Source: Lytechinus pictus (taxonomy: Eukaryota). From it: 64,000 bases of DNA. A program made the position numbers and the translations under genes. Under the pieces are notes generated by a model. It worked only from the letters and a program-made list of their open reading frames with translations. It did no database searches and was not told where the DNA came from. The stretch spans positions 6,078,001 to 6,142,000 of the forward strand of contig NC_087245.1 of the NCBI RefSeq assembly GCF_037042905.1. Reading direction: 5' to 3'. Positions 19,785 to 33,682 of the stretch are shown here, one piece after another. The stretch's first letter is position 1. Every line of letters begins with the position of its first letter.

Positions 19785-20352
19785 TAGTAAACTCGGTTGA
19801 TTTGCTATCTTACTTCTTGATGTGAACTGCTGGACTGCTGGACTAAACTGGACTAAACTGGGTTTACTGGGTGTATTTTTCTTGGAAATTTTACCTTTTG
19901 GACACTTCTTACCGTAATTTTGCCAATATGTTATATTTTAACTGGATTATAAATACCTAGGAGGGACTTTGCAGGTAACTATATTGCTTATTCGTTGAGA
20001 AATATTGGTGAACTTTGTCTGCTATGTGCACAGGATTGCTCTCCACATTTTTGGTACAGTCCCATGTACTTACCTTAATGTCTTGCTATGATTAAAGTGT
20101 ACACAGAGACCTAGCTAATGTATGTAGCACTAAAGGACTGACCTGGATTTTCAGTCGTTCATATCTACTCGAGCAGTAAATGACTCCTTCAATCCTGATT
20201 GTTATTGATTGCATTATACAGTTGACTCCTATTGACCTGTCTGGTATTCATTGAATGGTCTATTCACCTCTACTACTCTAGACTATAGACTAAACCTTGA
20301 TCGAACTTAGCCTTTGAACTAGTCTTTAAACTGGTAGTTTAACCCATCAACT

Positions 20353-21403
20353 ATGACATCTCCCAGCGTTAGAACTAGACAGGCTTCCAAGGAAAAATCC
20401 AACACTCAGAGTTTAGTGACATCTGTTATTAAAGACATTTTGTTGGATAAAACTTTTCTTGCTCTTGTTGAGAGTCCACACGGGTCGTGTGGTCCAGTGG
20501 TTAGAGCATTGGACTCATAATCGCAAGGTCGTGAGTTCGAATCCCAACTCTGCCATTGTCTCCACTTTGATAAAAAGGCCCAAGAGTGATATCTGTCGTC
20601 TATTACGTCAGCCACTATGACTGATTAACCTAGACGTAAAATGTTTCCAAAGTAATTGGTTATATACCAGCTTGGCGTTTACCAGCAAAAAATGCTGTCC
20701 TGCCGAGTTCCTACGGGAGTTACCACAAACAGAGAGTCAGGTTTCTAAACAACTATCTGAACTACGTACTGAGGGAGAGAAACAGGAGTCAAGGTTATTT
20801 GATCTTGAGGTCAAAGTCGAACGATACACCCATGATATGAACGACATGAAATCCTTGATAGAAACCCAGAAATCAAGTATCAAGAAGCTACAACATGCCC
20901 AGGAACAATATTCTCGCAGAAATTGCCTTCGGTTCTTTGGCTTTCATGAGTCTCCCCAAGAAGATACAGATGACATCATCATGAAGCTCGCTTCTGAAGT
21001 TCTTGGAGTTCAGCTGGCGAGGAACGACATCGAGAGGAGCCACAGGATTACTTCAAGAACTAAATCATTAAGATCTGGAGTGGCTGAAAGCACAGAAAGA
21101 TCCCATCCTCCACGACAGATAATTGCCAAGTTTGCCTCGTACAGGACCCGCCAGATGATTCTTAGGCAACGTCGGAAGCTCGCTGGAAAGGGGCAGTCGA
21201 TTCAGGAAGATCTGACTGCTCAAAATGCACAACTTCTCCATGCTGCTAAGACATCTAAGGTAGTGGAAACTGCTTGGTCAGTGGATGGACGAATCTTTGT
21301 ACTTGTGTCAAATGGTACCACCAAAAAGAAACATCTAATAAAGAACAAAACTGAACTTGAGCAGCTCATTGAACTCAACGCACACTTATCCAGGCTTACT
21401 TGA
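20353..21403 (+). pseudogene. LINE ORF1p (coiled coil + RRM-type), 262 aa when the SINE is removed
   Basis: Joining 20353-20469 to 20732-21403 is in frame (MTSPSVRTRQ...LALVESQVSKQLSELR...). Motifs RRNCLRFFG, DIERSHR, PRQIIAKF, IQEDLT and WSVDGRI are typical of L1/L2/CR1-type ORF1. Confidence 0.85.
20477..20731 (+). mobile_element. tRNA(Met-like)-derived SINE inserted in ORF1, 7-bp TSD
   Basis: GAGAGTC is duplicated at 20470-20476 and 20732-20738. The head GGGTCGTGTGGTCCAGTGGTTAGAGC...CTCATAA...GTTCGAATCCC has A and B boxes. Confidence 0.9.
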
Positions 21404-21640
21404 AACAAACTTTGCCTGCATTGACTCACCTCTAAAGCTTACTACACTGTTTTTACTGTTGAAGTCTAAAACTGTTATTGATTTGTTGTACTTTGATTGT
21501 TAAGTTTTTTTTGTTTGTTTTTTACACTCTCTGCAGCTCCCCACCCTCCCCCGATTTCAATTTTTTTTCTCTCTGTCTATAGAGTATTTCTTTCCCATGT
21601 ATTTGATTGTATTTGTATTCCTTGTTATTGAACGCTTTTT

Positions 21641-21878
21641 ATGATTAGTAATTTATTCACCTGCAGTAACTGTTCCAAACCTCAATCTCATCATGAAAAT
21701 GCATTTTGTGATTCCTGCAATACTATATTATTCCCTTTTAACCATTATGTAAGCAATGAAGAATTTGTTTTCTCAATTTTTACTTTCTTTCATTTAGATA
21801 AGTCTATCGATGAGGACAATTTTCATGCCTTGGCTATTAATCCTTTTACTTTGAATGAATCTGAGAATGACTATAATG
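21641..21878 (+). pseudogene. LINE ORF2, 5' part (before the 8.86-kb insertion)
   Basis: MISNLFTCSNC...CDSC...LFPFN...ENDYN joins in frame to 30739 once the insertion is removed. Confidence 0.85.
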
Positions 21879-22160
21879 TATTTTAAAGACGACTCGGCGA
21901 TTTAAAATGATTTATTAGTCGGTGAACAATGCCAGGTCATGAAGGTATTTGTAATTTGGAATGGCGCGGTTGACGAGGTGATACGTCACAATGGCGCGCC
22001 AGCCTGTTTGGTTTATGCCCACAATGACAATAATTTGTACTGGGCGCAAGGAGCGCGCATGTTTTGGCGCGCGCGCCTAGGTGTGAAGGCGCGAAAAATC
22101 CTTCATTTTAGTCTTGGCTTTCAACGGAGATGAACGTCCAAAATATTCGCTTGTAATTTT
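21873..22160 (+). repeat. Split direct repeat A1 (288 bp, CpG-rich)
   Basis: Identical by eye to 29160-29447 (offset 7287). The ORF track shows the same 64-aa spurious ORF in both copies. Confidence 0.95.
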
Positions 22161-25100
22161 TCTTACGACCTTGCATTTTTGAAGACGTCGTAATCTACAA
22201 AGAGCAACGAAATCTACAAGAATTTTTTGTTGAAACCATCATCGATCGGGACTCACAACAATTTCGCTTATGAAGCTGAAAATGCAGTCCGAATTACTTG
22301 ATGATACTCTATTTCTTGCCTGGCCTAACATTAACAACAACTCGTCTGCTTTGACTTTGAACCAAGTTTAATACGACGGGGAGCGACTGTATCGATTACA
22401 GCAGTCAGCAGATCGGCTGGGCCCTAACTTTTGAGCTGTTTGGTTTCAGCAACGATGGGACGAATGATGAGAATGTGACTCAAGCTGCTAGGTGGAATTC
22501 AGTTCATTCGGCTTTTCATAAGCCTGGAATTTTTATTGAGTCTGAGAGTCTTGTCGTTAACGTGCAGGATTTGGGACTGGCAACAGCCAACCCAGCCAAC
22601 AAAACATTTGAGCACGGACCCTGGCACAAGGTTAGAGACTAGGCCTAAGTTAGGCCTACATTGGCAACAAAATCATGCATAAGTTAGACATTGTCGGCGA
22701 CGCCATGATACAGTAGACTATGATTCATCATGATCACCCAATGATATGACTATGACTATGAGTATTTAATGTTTGTCGGAAGTCAGAGGTCCTACTCCTG
22801 AGTCCGAGCTCTCGAGTCTGCTTGTGGGAGGTGAGGCGACGGTCTGGATTGGCAGACGGAACGGGGAACGGGGTACTCGTGGTCGGTACCACTACCAGAG
22901 AATTCACAAGTTTCAGTCTCTACAAGACCTAGCCTATCCGGTGAGTACGAAGCAGGAATAGATCTAGGCTAGACTCAGTCTAGATTTAGGTCTACGGTTT
23001 AGTGTCAAATAGTATCCTAGGCCTAGGCCTAGTAGGTCTACGTTAGGCCTAACGTTAAGCCTAGTATACTGTAGTGCTAACTTAGAGTAGAAGTTAGGCT
23101 TAAATGAATCGTAGAAGAGGCCTGCTTTGTAACGAGCAGGTAGGCCTGTCTAGGCCTGGCTTTAGATTTCGAACAAAATCATGTTCTTATTGGTCAGGAG
23201 TTAATAGGCTCTGAGTCCTTTTCATTTCAATTTCATGGCCCGTCAACCCCCCCCCCCCCCCGGTTTTCACGTTAGAACGCGAAGATCCTATTACCAACCA
23301 TAGGCCAGGCATAAGACTAGTTAAGGTAGTCAGGCAAACATGGTTCGATGGGGGGGGGGGGCTATTTGGCTTGTCAACACAATGTTTAGATTTGAATGTA
23401 GGTCATATGTCAAGCCATAATAAGACATAGCTTGGACTTGGCCTGGAATTAATTTTAATTTGGTCCAAGCGGTTTATACGATCATGATGGAAAAGGGAGG
23501 GGTTGTCGTCATAATTCAAACACGGGCCTAGCTAGGCCTGTTCCTACTTGACGACTTGTTTTAGTGTCTGAACTAGGTCACTAGGTGTGTCATGGTGATT
23601 TTTAAAAAGAGTTCAACAATTTTATTAACGTTAATTACCGTATCGTATTAGGTGTAGGCCCTAGTTCATGGCTGTGGTTAATATGGATGTAAATACATTT
23701 TCACAGCCGGTGGTTTGGAAATTGGGGTTAGTCTCCTCAGTATATGACTACATTGAGGTTCTAAAGCTTCGGCCAGAATCGATGTATATTTTCGATGGAA
23801 AATCAAAGAAAAATGAAGTCTATAGAGGCCGATATGAAATTGGTTCTAGCAGCCATTATTTACAGCTTATTCTAGGCCTAGTGATGGGCTAGGCTAAGAT
23901 GTATTTAAGACCATGATTAATTTTAAGCCGCCGTTTTTGGCAAAAATGGTGAGAATAGCAGAGGGTCTACTAGTGATTGGCAAAAAGTTCGAACTTTTTC
24001 GGTGCTGATAAATAACTGAGTGAGAAATGTCACTTTGTCTTTGTTATAAATTTACAAGTAGTCTACTACTAGTACAGGTACTCGGACTACAATTTAATGG
24101 TGACACCACAGAGGAAATTAGGCTAAGTCCAACGTTAGATCTACTAACAGTAGACGCGGTTTTACATGTCTGTTTTGGGGATAAATCAGCTGGTTCAGTT
24201 AGGCCTATAAAAGTAGTATTTGACCTCTGTGACTTTTTCTGGATATGGGCCAGCATGAGCTGTGTTCTCGGTCTAAAAATTATGTGGATAGACCGGTGGT
24301 GGAAGAGCTTATACTAGATATGTATACGTCTACTCAGTTTTTAAATGAACATCTACAGACTGCGACGGGCATGATATTATTGTTGAATCAGTCACTTGAA
24401 AAGTAGCGGATGTGGCTTAGCATTATGACATGCGATTGTATGGATTTCTTACAGTCTTTTAAAGGAAAATAACTAGAGTTTAAAGTATTGAAAATAATAC
24501 TATTTATTGCTGATGTTGATGATACAGTGTGATAATGATTATACATTAAATATAAATACCTCCACCTTGCACCAAGCAGTTCTGTTTATACATTTACGCC
24601 TTGAAACGGGTTGGTTTTTGGAATTCACTTTGCATGAATTGAATGCCGATGCTTGGTGGAAATGTGAGCTTCACATTTCGAGGAAACATGGTACACGTAA
24701 AAGTGGACTTACCATGCACATAATAGTCGGATGTAATTTCAAACTAGCTTGGAATCCCCAAATTAGTTTAGATTGAAGTCAAGTGGTCAACGAGCAGTTT
24801 GTTATAATATTATAGGCCTCCCAATAAGAAACCTTTATGTAATAGGAGTCGTTTATGTGCGATGATTTTGTGTGGATTTTATTTTGTGTAAAAAAAAAAA
24901 AGTAGAAATGCTTAGGCCCTATTGGAATTGAATTTAATTACTGGTTGTTATATAGCGCTTTATATCAACCTCGAAGTCGAACTGCTCAAAGCGCTTCACA
25001 ATTGAACCTAGTTGCACCTCATGGTTCAAGGTATTTATCAAATAGGCCTATTTGGCTGGTCAATGATTTGAACTGAGATAATATCATTTTAAAAAGAATG

Positions 25101-26739
25101 ATAATTATGTAATTATGTAAATGGGCATGTGTGGGAAAGTCTGAAATCTTGTAGATGCACCATGCTGTCACCCCCCCCCCCCTTTGCTTTCGGGGGACAC
25201 AATACGGATGCCTTTAATGCAATGAGCCATGTAGGTAAACTGGCCAATCAAACGAAATTTACCGATTGCACAATCAGGAACCAGGTTACAAAAGTACATC
25301 TTCTTTTTTGGAATTGTACAGCGTGTGAAATATTTTGTTGGTGGCCCGTTGAGTATGAAAATGTTTCCAATGGGCTGGATGCAATAATTTGGCTCGATTA
25401 TTTCTGCAGTGATATGAGGTAAACTGAATACTGATATAATAATGATAATATATTTCAAAATAATACAAGTTATAGTCATTTGGAACAGATTATTTGAAGC
25501 TTAATCTGGTTTTGAAATATATTCTAAGTTGCGACACGCACATGTATGCAGATGATATTGCATCGCTGGTTGGGGTTGTACTGTAGGGAATTGGAAAATT
25601 AAAGTTAAAAATGAAACATAAGGAGCAGGACTACTGATTATTCCGTGAAGGCGGTTTTCAGATGTTTCGGGAAGCTGCTCCTTTCGTGTTAAGCTCATAA
25701 TTGAGTGATAAATTGAAAGGGAAAGCAGAGGGACAAACCCGTTTTGGTACGAGATACAGATTTAGGTGTTCTGCCCAGGCTTTTTTCTTGTTTTCTTTTG
25801 CAGAGCCGGCTCTTTGGATAAAATGGATTCAAGCTGACTACTGCGAGGCAAGGTAGGCTGGCAGGAAAGTTTGATGACAATCGGACCTACTATAGTATAA
25901 CCTAGAACGCTCCAAGTCTGGCTGCCAAAGAGTTTCCCTTTGGTTGGATCTAGTTCCTGACCAGATAGCCTAGAGTCCATGGTAATGGATGTCAATTGTG
26001 GCGTTAATACGCTCTTGTAATAAATAGAAATGAACTGGGTATAGCCTGAGAACTATGCTGCCGGAAATTACCCTAATTGGAGCAGTGGTCAACGTCTTCA
26101 TCTTCATATTAATAATTTACCGACAGGTGTGGATTTATAATACGTAGTCCAAGGAATAGAGGTTTTCTTCAGTAAAAAAAACTGGTGAACAAACATCTTA
26201 GCCTTCAAGGAACAGTATTGCAGCAGGGAAAACAATTTCATGTTTGAAACATCATGATACAGTGGGCTATCTTGAATAATGAGTCCATGATATGAGGATG
26301 AGTTCATTATGATTTCATTTTCAGACTTTTTATGAGGTCCTCCATATTGTTCACTTGGAAGGGATTGGAACTTGAACATATGAAGAAAGCCCTTTGCCTC
26401 TTTGTGCTTTTGCCAACAAGAATGTAACATATTGTTCAGGACAAATATATATATATGTGCATGTATAAATGTATAAGGCACTTCAATTTTATTCATTATC
26501 CTTTGAAGGACTACTCGTCGGATGTTATTTTAATTTTGAAATAAACAATTATTTCATGGATGTGGTGAAGATGATAAGACAAAAAGTCAGTCATGTTTTA
26601 CGTCGATATGTGAATACATAATCGAAAAATGAAACATCCCCGGTAAAATTCCAGTTTATGTTCACTGGTTCTTAGTTTAGCTGCATGAGGGGTGTAGCTC
26701 TATAAACGGAGTAGTTCTGACGGGAAGGGTTCATGTTCA

Positions 26740-27572
26740 AATTGGTTTTAGTGCCTTCAATTATCATGGTTATACTCTATTGGTTATATGGGGTTATTCT
26801 GTGGATGTTACTCTAGTTTTCAGTTTCAGTTTTTATTTTATCTCATTTCCAACAGAACAGTTTTCAAAATCCATTATAACTCAGGAATGGTATGATGTCT
26901 GTTTGTTGGCATTAAGAGTGAGGTGACTAACTAAATGCTGTGGTTGGATTTTAATTGATCGATTGTCCACAATTGAATCATATGGGTGCATGGAGTTAAG
27001 TCATGCACTGTTATAATTATATGGCAAATGGGACAACAAGAAAGTGGCAGTACCTCAGTGCGGCATGCATTGTTGGTTTAGCTATGTTGGGATGCTAGTA
27101 CGTGTTAACTATATGGTCAAACTGATGGCTTTCGGCCATCTAATTGGTTTTAGTGCCTTCAGTTATCATGGTTATACCCCATTGGTTATATGGGGTTGTT
27201 CTGTGGATGTTACTCAAGTTTTCAGTTTCAGATTTTATCTTATCTCAGTTCCAACAGAACAGTACCGGTATATCAAATCAAAAATAAATACTAATAATGA
27301 AAAAATGAATAAAATAAAGTATGGTATGTACCGTATTTGTTGGAATTAAGTGTGAAGTGACTAGCTAAATGCCGTGTTTGGTTTTTATCGATCGATTGTC
27401 CACAATTGAATTATTTGTGTGCATAGGGTTAGATTATGCACTGTTATACATGTATGGCAAATGGGACAACAAGACAGAGGCAGTACCTCAGTGCGGCATG
27501 CATTGCTAGTTTAGCAATGTTGGGATGCCAGTATTTGTTAATTATATGGTCAAGCTGAAGGCGTTCAGCCAC
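26740..27572 (+). repeat. Diverged ~400-430-bp tandem duplication inside the SDR element
   Basis: AATTGGTTTTAGTGCCTTCA...GGCAGTACCTCAGTGCGGCATGCATTG... starts at both 26740 and 27142. Confidence 0.85.
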
Positions 27573-28335
27573 CATTGATAACTTATCAAAATTGGTGATG
27601 CAATGAATTTCAATTTTGAAGATTGCAATAGATTTGTATCAAAATCATGATACTTCAAATGGCATATTATCTTGTCTTCCTTCATATGTTTTGTTTAGTT
27701 TTGCGCATGGTAATCAGATTTTAATTGTGAATGAAGTTCTGACACGGTTATGTTTTAATGTATTTCTATTGGGAGATTTTTCCAACAGCTGAATACATTG
27801 AAGTGTTTTTCATGCTCTCATTATACTTGAGATGGATATTTGTTCATATACTTGAATTGGATTTTTCTATCTGGTTTTGGAATGCAATAAGTGAAATATT
27901 CAGGTGCAAAGTATTTGTCATTTCATGCTGGTTTAAAACGGGCTGGTATGTTGGTCAAGAATAGAAAACAGGTATACTGCGTATAAAATGATCACTCTTA
28001 TATCAGCCAGAATAGCTAGAGGCAAAGAATGCCAGCCTTCAGGTAACTGTGTCATGTAAGACAGCGACGTCAAGGCTGTACAAAGATTTTATACAAAGAT
28101 GATATATTTTAAATTCATTTAAAATTATTGGAGGGCTTGGAGGCCTACTTGACTACATATGCATGATAACTGATTTAGCTTGGCCAGCTAATGCAAAACT
28201 AGACTAAATTATGAACGAAGGCTTAAAAAATGAATGAAGTGTTTGGCGGCCGATCATATATATAAAATATATTCTCGTTTGGCGGTAATTTGTCAAATTA
28301 TGCCGCCTAAACACTGTTGTCATAAGATATATTGG

Positions 28336-29165
28336 CATGGCATATGTTCTTTAATCCACAATGGTCACTTTTGCAAGGTGTTTAAAGCAGTGAATTATAT
28401 TTTCGCCTCTAGTTATTAGATTTTCCACTTTGATGCCATGTACGTTGATTAATATTTCATATTGAATCGGGTCCTCATTCGGTACCTAGACGAAGGGGAT
28501 TTATTTATAACTTTACATAGTACTTTAAGAACGCAATTGTAGATTTGAATGTAAGGGTGTCACGCTCGAACTTTCAGTTTAGGCCTCACCTGATCTCATA
28601 GGCGGGGAGGCTGGTATTCTGTATACATTTATATTTTATGTAAGGGTGTCACGCTCGAACTTTCAGTTTAGGCCTCACCTGATCTCATAGGCGGGGAGGC
28701 TGGTATTCTGTATACATTTATATTTTTCGTGAAATTTAGGCCTCACCCAAGTTCTCATGCGGGAAGGCTGGTATATATATATATATGTATATTATATGAT
28801 ATAAGTATGACATCTGTAATCCACCGATTTGCCGGTAGCTCATAAATGTAGTTCATAGCTGTGCTGGTATTCCTGTCCGGCTAGCAGAGAACCAGTGGGA
28901 AAGCAGCCGCGAAATTTAACGTTGAATTTTCTGGGAGGGGGGCCTTCTAGCCGGGGGTTTAACCCCCCTTCGGGGAGCTAATTCGAGGCTATCGGTTGGT
29001 TTCAGATATACATGAATGTAAGTCTCTAATCAGAGGTATTCATATCTATGTTTTATACTTATGTGATTGTGACACCAATTTCGGGAAGCGTTCATCTCTA
29101 TTGAATAAAGCCACGACATAATCGCATATTATTTTGTTTTGTCATTTTGTTTGCCGAGAATAATG
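28336..29165 (+). repeat. Split direct repeat B1 (830 bp), containing 2 x 89-bp tandem units plus a partial third, and AATAAA at 29104-29109
   Basis: Matches 29909-30738 (offset 1573). One T/C difference was noticed near the 3' end. Confidence 0.95.
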
Positions 29166-29447
29166 TATTTTAAAGACGACTCGGCGATTTAAAATGATTT
29201 ATTAGTCGGTGAACAATGCCAGGTCATGAAGGTATTTGTAATTTGGAATGGCGCGGTTGACGAGGTGATACGTCACAATGGCGCGCCAGCCTGTTTGGTT
29301 TATGCCCACAATGACAATAATTTGTACTGGGCGCAAGGAGCGCGCATGTTTTGGCGCGCGCGCCTAGGTGTGAAGGCGCGAAAAATCCTTCATTTTAGTC
29401 TTGGCTTTCAACGGAGATGAACGTCCAAAATATTCGCTTGTAATTTT
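29160..29447 (+). repeat. Split direct repeat A2
   Basis: Copy of A1 directly abutting B1 through the shared ATAATG. Confidence 0.95.
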
Positions 29448-29908
29448 CCCACCTCCTCCCCAACAACCACCCATGTAAACGGTACGTTTGGGTCAAACGA
29501 TGTTGGAATATTGTTTAAACACATGCGTTGGAGAAGGTCGAGAATGAAGATACGCTATACGTATCATTCAGAGTTGATTTGTGTTTTATTGGAATGTACA
29601 GCTCGTTCAGGATGGAATAACGGGATGTAGAACTGTCGATAATGGACATTTGAATTAGTTTACTTACATGAATATAATATTGATTTATATAACGAAACAC
29701 GAATTCAAATCCGGAGGCAGTTTGCCTGGTCGCACACCAAAACAATACCAAGATCGTCGTGCATTTAGAAATGTGGGCCGTAAGGGAATTTTATCCTTCT
29801 GATCTATTTTGGACTGTGGTCAGGTGGGTTTTCGCCCTTACCCGTTTTTGTGGCTGGGTGTTCGTTATATATTGGTAATTCACATGAATTGTATTGTCAT
29901 ATTATTGT

Positions 29909-30738
29909 CATGGCATATGTTCTTTAATCCACAATGGTCACTTTTGCAAGGTGTTTAAAGCAGTGAATTATATTTTCGCCTCTAGTTATTAGATTTTCCA
30001 CTTTGATGCCATGTACGTTGATTAATATTTCATATTGAATCGGGTCCTCATTCGGTACCTAGACGAAGGGGATTTATTTATAACTTTACATAGTACTTTA
30101 AGAACGCAATTGTAGATTTGAATGTAAGGGTGTCACGCTCGAACTTTCAGTTTAGGCCTCACCTGATCTCATAGGCGGGGAGGCTGGTATTCTGTATACA
30201 TTTATATTTTATGTAAGGGTGTCACGCTCGAACTTTCAGTTTAGGCCTCACCTGATCTCATAGGCGGGGAGGCTGGTATTCTGTATACATTTATATTTTT
30301 CGTGAAATTTAGGCCTCACCCAAGTTCTCATGCGGGAAGGCTGGTATATATATATATATGTATATTATATGATATAAGTATGACATCTGTAATCCACCGA
30401 TTTGCCGGTAGCTCATAAATGTAGTTCATAGCTGTGCTGGTATTCCTGTCCGGCTAGCAGAGAACCAGTGGGAAAGCAGCCGCGAAATTTAACGTTGAAT
30501 TTTCTGGGAGGGGGGCCTTCTAGCCGGGGGTTTAACCCCCCTTCGGGGAGCTAATTCGAGGCTATCGGTTGGTTTCAGATATACATGAATGTAAGTCTCT
30601 AATCAGAGGTATTCATATCTATGTTTTATACTTATGTGATTGTGACACCAATTTCGGGAAGCGTTCATCTCTATTGAATAAAGCCACGACATAATCGCAT
30701 ATTATTTTGTTTTGTCATTTCGTTTGCCGAGAATAATG
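29909..30738 (+). repeat. Split direct repeat B2 (right terminus)
   Basis: Copy of B1. It ends GCCGAGAATAATG, after which LINE ORF2 resumes. Confidence 0.95.
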
Positions 30739-33682
30739 ATATAAGTAGCTTTCAATCTCCATTTAATGTAAACAATGCAAACAATGTTTCCAGTAAATAT
30801 ATATTTTCTGATGATTTTATCCCTAAGTATCATTCTACTTGTGACAACTTTTCTTTATTACATGTTAATTCCAGAAGTCTTGTTCGTAATTTTGACGACT
30901 TACAGCTTCTTCTGAAATCTCTAGATTATAAATTTACCGCTGTCGGGATTTCTGAAACATGGTTTCGTGATAATATTTCAATTGATATGTATAATATTGA
31001 TGGATATTCCCTTGTTCACACTGATAGAGTTGGTAGAAATGGAGGAGGAGTAGCATTGTATATAAGAGATGGCATTGATTATAACTTGTGCAATATGATA
31101 TCATTAAGTAAAGATCACTGTGATACTGTTTTTGTAGAAATTAATCAACCAAAAAAGAAATCTCTTGTAGTTGGTTGCATTTACAGAGTACCCAATACTG
31201 ATATAACTTTATTCAACGAAACACTTTCAAATATTCTTACTGACATTAACTACTCAAAAAAGGACATTTATCTATTAGGTGATTTCAATATTAACTTAAT
31301 CAATTATAACATTGACAACAAGACAAATGAATTCTTAAATACTCTTTTTTCATGTGGCTTTTTTCCATCTATTAACAAACCTACACGTGTGACAAGGCAC
31401 TCTGCTACGTTAATAGATAACATTTTTACTAACTGTATTGATATGAACAATAAGTATGGTATAATTTATTCTGATCTTTCGGATCACTTTCCAATTTTTC
31501 ATATTACTGACACCAAGTCTATTCCAATTCATTTGCATCATTGTAAGTCACGTATTATAACTGAAGAAAAAATATTGACATTTCAGAGAAAGCTTCTATC
31601 AATCGACTGGTCTCCAATTTATAGTAATTCAGATGTTAATGTCTCATATGACCTATTTATTCACAAACTCACTTCCCTATACTCTGAATGTTTTCCTTTA
31701 ACCAAAATAAAAATAAAAAAGTATAATAAACCTTGGATTACTCATGGTATCATGAAATCTATCAAAAGAAAACATAGACTTTATTGTTGCTATATCAAAA
31801 AAAGAGACTCTCAAAGTCGAAATAAGTATATTGAGTATAAAAATACATTAACCTGTACTATTCGTCAGTGTAAAAAAATCTTTTATGAAAACCTATTTAG
31901 CAAAACAAAAGGCGATATGAAAAAAACCTGGTCTGAAATAAATAATATATTAGGTAAAAAGAAAGACTCACTTCCATCTCATATGTATTTTAACCAAGAA
32001 AAGATTTTTAGTAAAACATCAATCAGTGAAGCTTTTAACAAGTATTTTGTTAATGTTGGTAAAACTACGCAAGAAAAGATTCCCAATCCCGTCTCTCATT
32101 TCACTGACTATTTATCAAACCCTGTACCTTCTTCTTTATTCTTTAATCCCACTTCTAATACTGAAATAATTAATGTTCTGTCGTCCATGAAAACATCTGC
32201 TTCACCAGGTCCTGACTCTATTGCTGGTCGTGTTATAAAGAAGTGTATTCATTCCATTTTAAACCCTCTTTGTTATATCTTAAATGAATCTTTATCACAA
32301 GGAATAGTGCCAGATAAGCTTAAGACTGCTTTAGTTGTTCCCATCTTTAAAAGGGGTGATCGACATGACATTGTAAACTACCGTCCAATTGCTTTATTAC
32401 CATTCTTTTCCAAGTTATTGGAAAAGTTAGTATATACCAGGTTGTACAAATTTCTAACAGTTAATCATGTTTTAATACCACAACAATTTGGATTTAGGAA
32501 GAACTTTTCTACTGACCTTGGTGTCCTAAATTTATTTAACATAATTTCAAAAGAAATAGATGATGGTAATTTTTGCCTTGGTGTCTTTATGGATCTGTCT
32601 AAGGCTTTTGACACCATTGATCACCACATATTGTTAAAAAAATTAGAATATTATGGAGTTCGAGGAATTCCCCTTCAGTGGTTTCTTAATTATTTATTTA
32701 ATAGAAACCAACATGTGGTGATTGATGGTGTCAAATCTCAACACAGAGACATATCTTGTGGAATTCCTCAGGGCTCTGTGTTGGGCCCCCTCCTGTTTCT
32801 TGTTTACATTAATGATATAATTAATAGCTCCCCAATTCTAAACTTTTCATTGTTTGCTGATGACACAACAGTCACATTATCTCATAAAAAAATAAATAAT
32901 CTTGTCTCATCAGCAAACAATGAATTAAGAAAATTAAATGATTGGTTCGTTTGCAACAAACTGTTTTTAAATTTAGACAAAACAAAGTATATCATTTTTC
33001 GAACTCGAGGCAGGAGGGACCCTCCTCATTCTCTAAATATTTTTCTTGGTGTACATAATATAAAACAAGTAAAACATTTTCAATTTTTAGGAGTAATTTT
33101 TAATGAACACCTCTCTTGGAAACCACATCTCAATTCAATCTGTACCAAAGTTTCAAGATCTATTGGAGTTATTTCTAAAATTAGACATTTTGTTCCCCAT
33201 TCAATTTTAATTACTCTTTATAACAGTATCATACTTCCTCACTTAAATTATTGTAACATTGTATGGGGTCATACATTCAAAACACACTTGGATAAATTGA
33301 CAATTTTACAAAAGAAAGCAATAAGACTTATCTCAAATGCTCCTTTTAGTAGTCATACAAAGCCTTTGCTTTTACAATCAAATTTATTAACTTTAAAAGA
33401 TATGATATCATTAAATTCACTAGTTTTTATGTACAAGCTTAATGCCAAAATCTTACCACCTCTCTACAGTGACATTTTTGTTTCAAATTCTCAAATCCAT
33501 TCTTACTTTACCCGTCACACAAATGCCTACGCCCTCCACACGTTCGAACATCAATTGCTTTTAATTCATTTAAGACTTACTTCCCCAAACTATGGAATGA
33601 AATTCCAAATGATATAAAAAATAGTTCTACTTTATCAAGATTTAGATCTTTATGCAGGAAAATGTTATTTTCCGTTTATTGA
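30739..33682 (+). pseudogene. LINE ORF2 (APE endonuclease + reverse transcriptase), main part; 1-nt frameshift near 33530
   Basis: Motifs LHVNSRSL, GISETW, GGGVALY, IYRVP, LLGDFN, LSDHFP, NYRPIALL, QFGFR, DLSKAFD, GIPQGSVLGPLLF, FADD and FLGV. The expected C-terminus (PKLWNEIPNDIK...SRFR) continues in a shifted frame to TGA at 33680-33682. Confidence 0.95.

Follow-up and report, generated by a model that had tools for sequence, protein, structure and literature searches.

Tyrosine-recombinase (YR) retrotransposons are among the least understood of mobile elements, and their priming, the restoration of their ends, and their integration are known mostly as models. One of their groups, Ngaro, has been reported in Strongylocentrotus purpuratus. 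TOC1 of Chlamydomonas reinhardtii, in the layout reportedly given by Day et al. in 1988, is said to have one half of its repeat at the left, then a whole repeat, then a short stretch of unique spacer, and at the right the remaining half. In the part of PMC9940879 drawn on here, TOC1 is called a non-autonomous DIRS retrotransposon, and the corresponding part of PMC4157794 gives split direct repeats in the order A1-B1-A2-B2 as the defining feature of the PAT, Ngaro, and VIPER groups. SIRE consists of the A2 repeat of VIPER, about 30 bp of unique sequence, and the B2 repeat, and is regarded as non-autonomous in the passages used of PMC6681497. DIRS-order integration is described as involving a trinucleotide common to the circle junction, the ends of the element, and the target (excerpts of PMC7192593 and PMC3266345), and 23 of 28 DIRS1-like elements are listed as starting and ending with the junction trinucleotide (PMC3266345, same excerpt). 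Here we describe an 8,860-bp insertion in a 64,000-nucleotide stretch of Lytechinus pictus DNA (NCBI RefSeq assembly GCF_037042905.1, contig NC_087245.1, positions 6,078,001 to 6,142,000 of the forward strand), which is referred to below as the window and to whose first letter all positions are counted. Two direct repeats, A and B, lie within the insertion in the order A1-int-B1·A2-spacer-B2, where int is the internal region. The window copy is a very young member of a family of about fifty copies of an 8.9-kb protein-free element, and we consider it likely that the family is a non-autonomous split-direct-repeat member of the DIRS order, mobilized in trans like TOC1 and SIRE.

All parts of the element are given on the + strand. 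The left end is formed by the 288-bp terminal repeat A1 (21873..22160), which matches the inner short repeat A2 (29160..29447) at 100% identity and opens with the left hexamer ATAATG (21873..21878; invariant core TAA at 21874-21876). It is followed by int (22161..28326), 6,166 bp of non-coding sequence that is G+T-rich on this strand and has many indels across copies. B1, the inner copy of the long repeat (28327..29159), comes next, and the inner junction hexamer ATAATG (29160..29165), the equivalent of a circle junction, joins it to A2. A unique 451-bp spacer (29448..29898), beginning with a tract that is pyrimidine-rich on the + strand and hence purine-rich on the minus strand, separates A2 from the terminal long repeat B2 (29899..30732). 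The right end of the element reads ...GCCGAGA, and the right hexamer ATAATG stands at 30733..30738 (core TAA at 30734-30736). B1 and B2, compared as 28327-29168 and 29899-30742, are 99.5% identical over 844 columns; the clean repeat begins at 28337 and 29909, and a single substitution separates the two copies inside its approximately 830 bp. Repeats of 288 and 830 bp at 99.5-100% identity leave no concern over chance.

A preliminary description, made from the letters of the window alone, had proposed this arrangement: a 288-bp A at the left end repeated at 29160-29447, a pair of 830-bp B repeats, and the direct fusion of B1 to A2. All three hold, with a single ATAATG between B1 and A2. It had also noted that terminal inverted repeats (TIRs) and a poly-A tail were missing, and the analysis agrees, since we found no inverted repeat of at least 40 nt in 20000-33000 and no A-run at either end of the element.

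The insertion interrupts a long interspersed nuclear element (LINE). Two frames lie in the left part of the LINE (20621..21872, + strand): one of 260 aa (20621-21403) and an N-terminal, 84-aa piece of the apurinic endonuclease/reverse transcriptase (APE/RT) frame. That piece, 21632-21886, is in phase with the downstream frame after 8,860 bp are subtracted. The right part of the LINE open reading frame (ORF; 30739..33617, + strand) carries the endonuclease and reverse transcriptase by Pfam comparison, the 979-aa frame at 30678-33617 matching RVT_1 (5.9e-32) and Exo_endo_phos (1.9e-06). Three uninterrupted paralogous copies of the LINE read ...gactATAATGatataag... at this point and have a single hexamer ATAATG as the empty site. 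Because the paralogous empty sites hold one hexamer, the insertion is exact at 8,860 bp. The earlier observation that an otherwise intact LINE ORF is interrupted is thus upheld by the phase of its two parts, by the RVT_1 and Exo_endo_phos matches, and by the empty paralogues. In addition, DNA run X8, labelled as another organism, contained the family at 95-99% identity together with a contig carrying the empty LINE site. The interrupted LINE family is itself young, with its left flank present in 6 other places at 98-99% and in 4 more at 69-91%.

We then searched the whole assembly, 811.7 Mb in 368 contigs, for further copies. A 31-mer from the start of A had 127 matches at up to 2 mismatches, a 27-mer across the B-A junction had 50, and a 31-mer from the spacer had 63; the reversed-pattern control gave 0 for each of these three. 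A 31-mer from the start of int had 32 matches. The first 100 of the 127 A copies were classified, and counts of A copies below refer to these 100. In 41, B lay upstream; 40 of these ran into the spacer, and the downstream sequence of 1 was unclassified. Another 20 stood at a left end and ran into int of the window type (subfamily I), 29 stood at a left end and ran into something else, and 10 were free A-spacer units with no upstream B. The spacer therefore follows A in 50 cases in total. No A copy was found that was preceded by B and followed by int, the arrangement expected of a permuted or long-tandem copy, and int downstream of a B-A junction was shown at 0 of 41 junctions (40 led into the spacer, 1 was unclassified). 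At least 37 A1-A2 pairs were present, 30 of them spaced 6,988-7,434 bp apart (median 7,307).

Eleven further full copies align collinearly with the window copy over their whole length. All 14 copies in which both ends were read stop at the same bases and lie in unrelated flanks, and the order of the repeats was constant both in these 14 and in 37/37 A1-A2 pairs. Divergence of the window copy from its counterparts on C7 and C10 is 0.1%, in keeping with the preliminary description of the element as recently mobile. Dispersed full-length copies with the same ends and different flanks, named there as something to look for, are therefore present. The outcomes named there as counting against the proposal did not appear: the element is not single-copy (127 A starts, 50 inner junctions), its boundaries do not vary between copies (14/14 share them), and the structure recurs at dozens of loci on different contigs, so that it is not an assembly artefact.

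Among the 29 left-end A copies followed by something else, 21 were read. One copy read over 2.5 kb (L067) and 15 of the other 20, each sampled for 100 bp, shared a second type of interior, which we call subfamily II; the other five sampled were one diverged spacer (L068), two A-to-B joins, one insertion, and one unreadable copy (L086). The first 2.5 kb of the subfamily II int is collinear with the window copy at 70-87% identity and contains no ORF of at least 85 aa. Subfamily II was considered as a possible coding form and was rejected on account of this collinear, non-coding interior. Both subfamilies retain the whole split-repeat architecture. Unusually long copies were likewise rejected as autonomous forms, since the extra length of those on C12 and C5 is that of nested insertions. 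One locus on C12 carries a further A-spacer-B unit in tandem; two junctions and two spacers lie there, and the distance between the A starts is 1,582 bp.

Some of these loci contained features of their own. The C12 copy holds a 3,448-bp nested element (L043:3025-6472) at element position ~25281. With TIRs of ~75 nt that are 78% complementary and, in its interior, tandem repeats of ~150 bp, it looks like a non-autonomous DNA transposon. The insertion in the C5 copy (L045:1204-4899, minus strand) exceeds 7 kb, lies at element position ~22764, and has an open 1,232-aa frame whose sole Pfam match is a weak one to a Rabaptin-like coiled-coil family (6e-05, below cut-off). At L082 (C17:17117723) and L072 (C3:4294677), A is joined straight to the start region or middle of B with no spacer; these forms either have arisen by deletion or stand nearer to the canonical A2-B2 arrangement. 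In L057 (4197-4376 and 6590-6915; C15:24.48 Mb), the end of B meets the start of A in two old junction fragments of 82-89% identity, oppositely oriented and 2.2 kb apart, and from their age the family or a predecessor is far older than the young copies.

The insertion sites were compared next. At left ends (n=16) the hexamers were ATAATG in 11, TTAATG in 4, and ATATTG in 1; at right ends (n=14) they were ATAATG in 5, ATAAAG in 3, ATAATT in 2, and ATAAGA, ATAATA, ATAAAT, and ATAAAC in 1 each; and all 14 inner junctions read had ATAATG. TAA was constant at 15/16 left ends, 14/14 right ends, and 14/14 inner junctions. Identity to the target extends over 3-6 bp, and its extent is not the same at the left and right of one copy. 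Since the hexamers of one copy often differ, there is no target duplication of fixed length. Targets rebuilt from the flanks favor A-TAA-T-G, with A at -1 in 11/14, T at +1 in 8/14, and G at +2 in 8/14, and they resemble the B-A junction of the element itself. The presence of TAA at the ends and at the junction fits the published signature of DIRS-order integration outlined above.

The repeats are conserved more strictly than the rest of the element. Across 12 full copies, diversity was 0.001-0.002 in A, 0.002-0.005 in B, 0.008 in the spacer, and 0.017 in int, the last with 859 gap columns, so that A and B are approximately 5-10x less diverse than the interior. The A 31-mer had zero mismatches among the 100 A copies listed, from both subfamilies, and the B-A junction differs by one base across subfamilies. 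Between the subfamilies, A and B are ~99-100% identical while the 5' part of int falls to 70-75%. We infer that A and B carry cis-acting signals and that the 6.2-kb interior would be a largely unconstrained passenger. The 24 B copies of the 12 elements were also aligned with one another. Nine variant sites and one 2-bp indel each occurred in both B copies of an element. Seven changes were private to single B copies, and no site inside the repeat separated all B1 from all B2. Copy-specific variants common to B1 and B2 indicate that the B copies have been re-synchronized in each lineage. This could have occurred during the replication cycle, as with long terminal repeats (LTRs), or by gene conversion.

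Within B1 are two exact 89-bp tandem units (28549..28726), repeated in B2 at 30122-30299, followed by a degenerate third 40-nt motif at 28735-28774. Each of the units and the third motif has a weak hairpin, and none of these folds is significant (best z-score -1.95 for the 89-bp units; -0.04 for the degenerate third copy). AATAAA lies 50 nt upstream of the B1 end (29104..29109) and, with its B2 twin at 30677-30682, is the sole + strand poly(A) signal in A, B, and the spacer. The interior contains a degenerate internal duplication (26737..27571) with units of approximately 400-430 bp at 85-93% identity.

The coding capacity of the element was then evaluated. The longest internal stop-to-stop frame is 141 aa (26107-26529, minus strand), slightly longer than the limit of 130 aa given in the preliminary description. 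Its statement that gag, RT/RNase H, and YR motifs could not be recognized is confirmed, as six read-through frames of the element matched 0 Pfam families at E up to 1. Twelve separate internal ORFs had no Pfam match at E up to 0.1. No Rfam match was found in the element at E up to 1, and no tRNA; a retrozyme-like identity was rejected in the absence of any Rfam or tRNA match. With neither RT/RNase H nor a tyrosine recombinase encoded, the element can only be a non-autonomous derivative. Placement in PAT, Ngaro, or VIPER fails for want of the proteins.

A partner that might supply these proteins was sought in the same genome. At least 78 Phage_integrase matches lie above cut-off (98 of 200 candidates scored), and none of these 78 is inside a listed copy of the family. 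By blastn the element had no match to 12 recombinase loci. Three young DIRS1-like families were rebuilt, L058+L032+L059 on C5, L060+L036+L061 on C10, and L062+L042+L063 on C3, with gag-like proteins of 408-490 aa, RT proteins of 703-716 aa that include a weak methyltransferase-like match, and tyrosine recombinases of 331-336 aa. These families have inverted internal and terminal repeats, and several copies are 98-99% identical. The element had no blastn match to the three rebuilt copies, and their gag, RT, and YR proteins searched against the element by tblastn gave a best E-value of 0.28. At up to 3 mismatches, the junction 27-mer found 48 family copies and the 2 old fragments in L057, near which there is no long ORF. 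An autonomous partner with A and B ends, whose existence the preliminary description had suggested checking, was not found, there being no coding interior after A in the readable copies among the first 100 of the 127. At L031:1-800 (C17:18021007-18021800), a decayed tyrosine-recombinase frame adjoins a tight cluster of 13-nt repeats, both direct and inverted (TCCTGTAGTACTG-like), that form many hairpins.

The family is mobile, ends at exact bases, keeps a core TAA, conserved termini, concerted repeats, and a fixed order, and has no genes. The interpretation already offered in the preliminary description, a candidate non-autonomous YR retrotransposon, finds support in the split repeats, the multi-copy family, the TAA signature, and the lack of genes, and a non-autonomous DIRS-order element mobilized in trans is in our view the probable identity. 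Such an element might work as follows. Transcription of the + strand would run from within A1 to just past the AATAAA near the end of B2, and such a transcript would be an RNA lacking both extremities. The reverse transcriptase of a helper element would copy this RNA, with the inner B1·A2 junction serving as the template that restores the lost ends and joins B2 to A1. A helper tyrosine recombinase would then recombine the joined B-A site, at the core TAA within ATAATG, with a junction-like TAA target. The outcome would be TAA at both ends with no true target-site duplication. The concerted variants of B1 and B2 and the copy-and-paste abundance of the family are compatible with an RNA intermediate, and the position of AATAAA 50 nt before the end of B fits an RNA without the last bases of B2.

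Several points weigh against this scheme. The RNA intermediate, its sense strand, and the helper are what we infer, and the RNA step has to be counted among these points. The whole-length identity of B1 and B2 exceeds what the simplest model, in which only the tips are restored, would give, and needs either LTR-like regeneration or gene conversion. For the + strand as sense strand, it is unfavorable that the tracts beside A are purine-rich on the minus strand and that AATAAA-type motifs occur on the minus strand too. No helper was found among the candidates compared: the three DIRS1-like families are unrelated to the element in sequence, and of the 78 recombinase matches (98 of 200 candidates scored) not one falls within a listed copy. 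Outside the family, 20-mers resembling the junction are no commoner than chance would give (366 versus 443 in the control). Finally, a symmetrical double-stranded circle with two identical B-A junctions should yield permuted copies, and none was seen.

Two raw RNA runs were used, about 6% of each being read. Depth was 4-9 on B, A, and the spacer, with hardly any reads on int, and almost all had the first mate on the + strand. The reads differ from the window at fixed positions, and loose ends occur at the end of B (29164; 14 reads), before A (29159; 4), and inside A (29434/22147; 8). This is the pattern of a diverged short unit that lies within some other transcript, and it says nothing firm on whether, or on which strand, the full element is itself transcribed. 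Their continuation is a separate dispersed repeat beginning AATAGCTGTATTTATAAAGCGCC, present in 52 places (37 forward and 15 reverse; for example C1:19274546 and C13:10221048) and joined to the B end, probably at one transcribed locus. A further run, X1, labelled 'RNA?', had depths over int 5', int 3', spacer, and B of about 25:65:90:160; as this tracks genomic copy number, it was treated as DNA.

The absence of permuted copies raises a tentative idea about the mechanism, to which we give perhaps one chance in a few: split-repeat YR retroelements may not integrate from a symmetrical double-stranded circle at all, and joining or integration may be directional. The B1-A2 and B2-A1 junctions would look alike to the recombinase, and the idea is based on the concordance of B pairs over their whole length, the conserved 1.1-kb B·A module, and the 0 permuted copies at 41 junctions. 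The substrate might be a linear or single-stranded complementary DNA whose ends are held by the inner junction, and the terminal module might be repeatedly re-copied from a shared template, possibly the helper RNA.

Among readings that depart from a DIRS-order retroelement, the one that survives best, though we judge it unlikely, is a DNA-only YR element akin to a non-autonomous Crypton, excised as a double-stranded circle and re-integrated at a TAA core without reverse transcription. The TAA/ATAATG signature proves only YR-type recombination and not reverse transcription, and an RNA step is presumed here. Moreover, the portion of PMC3212892 consulted describes Cryptons that use 4-6-bp direct repeats as recombination substrates, that have non-autonomous derivatives, and that are present in sea urchin. 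The same portion presents animal Cryptons as lacking terminal repeats, however, whereas the split direct repeats are strict in this family. A Crypton-like circle with two identical junctions should also integrate both ways, yet no permuted copy was seen at the 41 junctions, and excision and re-integration alone leave the re-synchronization of B1 and B2 in each lineage unexplained. The presence of about fifty near-identical copies, with divergence as low as 0.1%, further suggests copy-and-paste.

It is distinctly improbable, in our estimation, that the structure is a composite in which a long A-int-B unit was joined by a short A-spacer-B unit that landed at the TAA site regenerated beside it; the two would now move together, or else a single founding event was followed by amplification. 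A recombinase that regenerates its site on both sides would make such tandem accretion possible, and the free short units (10 of 100 A copies), the extra tandem unit on C12, and the diverged spacer lineage seen in L068 and in the RNA reads speak for it. Nevertheless, 37/37 pairs have the same order, no long unit was seen downstream of a short one, and the whole architecture is retained in both subfamilies. A2 and B2 that are adjacent or split by a short unique stretch are also the norm in PAT, Ngaro, and VIPER as far as they are treated in the parts used of PMC4157794 and PMC6681497. A composite would in any case bear on how the structure arose, and it agrees well enough with a DIRS-order element mobilized in trans as its present mode of working.

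We give almost no credence to an integrase-type LTR derivative resembling large retrotransposon derivatives (LARDs) or terminal-repeat retrotransposons in miniature (TRIMs), to a tandem LTR array, or to an assembly or segmental-duplication artefact: the large non-coding interior is LARD-like, LARDs having such an interior, B·A would pass for an LTR of 1.1 kb, and the repeats of one copy are identical as LTRs are at insertion, but the element ends at the B-A boundary, inside the would-be LTR and not at its edges, its 3' end is not CA, its flanking hexamers often differ within one copy and so make no fixed duplication, and neither a tRNA nor a tRNA-type primer site was found. An artefact is excluded by the recurrence of the structure on different contigs, at dozens of loci, together with the exact paralogous empty site.

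Returning to the favored reading, that of a non-autonomous DIRS-order element, the closest described counterpart is TOC1, which in its reported layout is likewise a non-coding element of several kb with a split repeat. The present element resides in an animal instead of a green alga, is unrelated to TOC1 in sequence, and is larger, with 8.9 kb, a 451-bp spacer, and an 830-bp B. The alga has RT/recombinase relatives of TOC1 (TOC3, in the part of PMC9940879 drawn on), whereas no coding relative with these ends was found here. The anatomy of SIRE in Trypanosoma cruzi, as outlined in the excerpt of PMC6681497, is that of the free A-spacer-B units of this family; SIRE measures ~0.4 kb and has a coding parent, VIPER, while here the short unit is 1.58 kb and both long and short forms are non-coding. 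PAT-like and Ngaro elements share with the family the order A1...B1 A2 B2, identical repeat pairs, and the lack of a fixed target duplication (PMC4157794, in part). They encode gag, RT/RNase H, and YR, with a methyltransferase in addition in PAT, and this element encodes nothing; since PAT and Ngaro are told apart by protein phylogeny, no choice between them can be made for a protein-free element. With DIRS-1 and DIRS1-like elements the family has in common the trinucleotide at circle junction, ends, and target, as given in the excerpts of PMC7192593 and PMC3266345, and in both an internal copy of the junction would be essential for rebuilding the ends. In DIRS1-like elements, however, the terminal repeats are inverted and go with a complementary internal region in place of direct split repeats, and without inverted repeats the element is not DIRS1-like. 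CryptonI-1N1_RPro and CryptonA-1N1_OL, in the portion of PMC3212892 cited above, are like this element non-coding YR passengers that use short direct repeats as substrate; animal Cryptons are described there as moving as DNA and without terminal repeats, in contrast to the strict and concerted split repeats seen here. An animal example of a non-autonomous DIRS element may be undescribed in print, as a literature phrase search, with Repbase and Dfam uncompared, led only to the Chlamydomonas TOC1 paper.

The family has several uses for the study of YR retrotransposons. In this young, protein-free family, conservation is confined to the terminal modules, and these point to the sequences that helper enzymes must read. 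If joining or integration is indeed directional, a young family of 50 protein-free copies would amount to a natural map of the cis signals of transposition. The family also supplies clean insertion junctions, with a core TAA and a target that resembles its own junction, and its fixed repeat order and whole-repeat concerted evolution are constraints on any model of replication.

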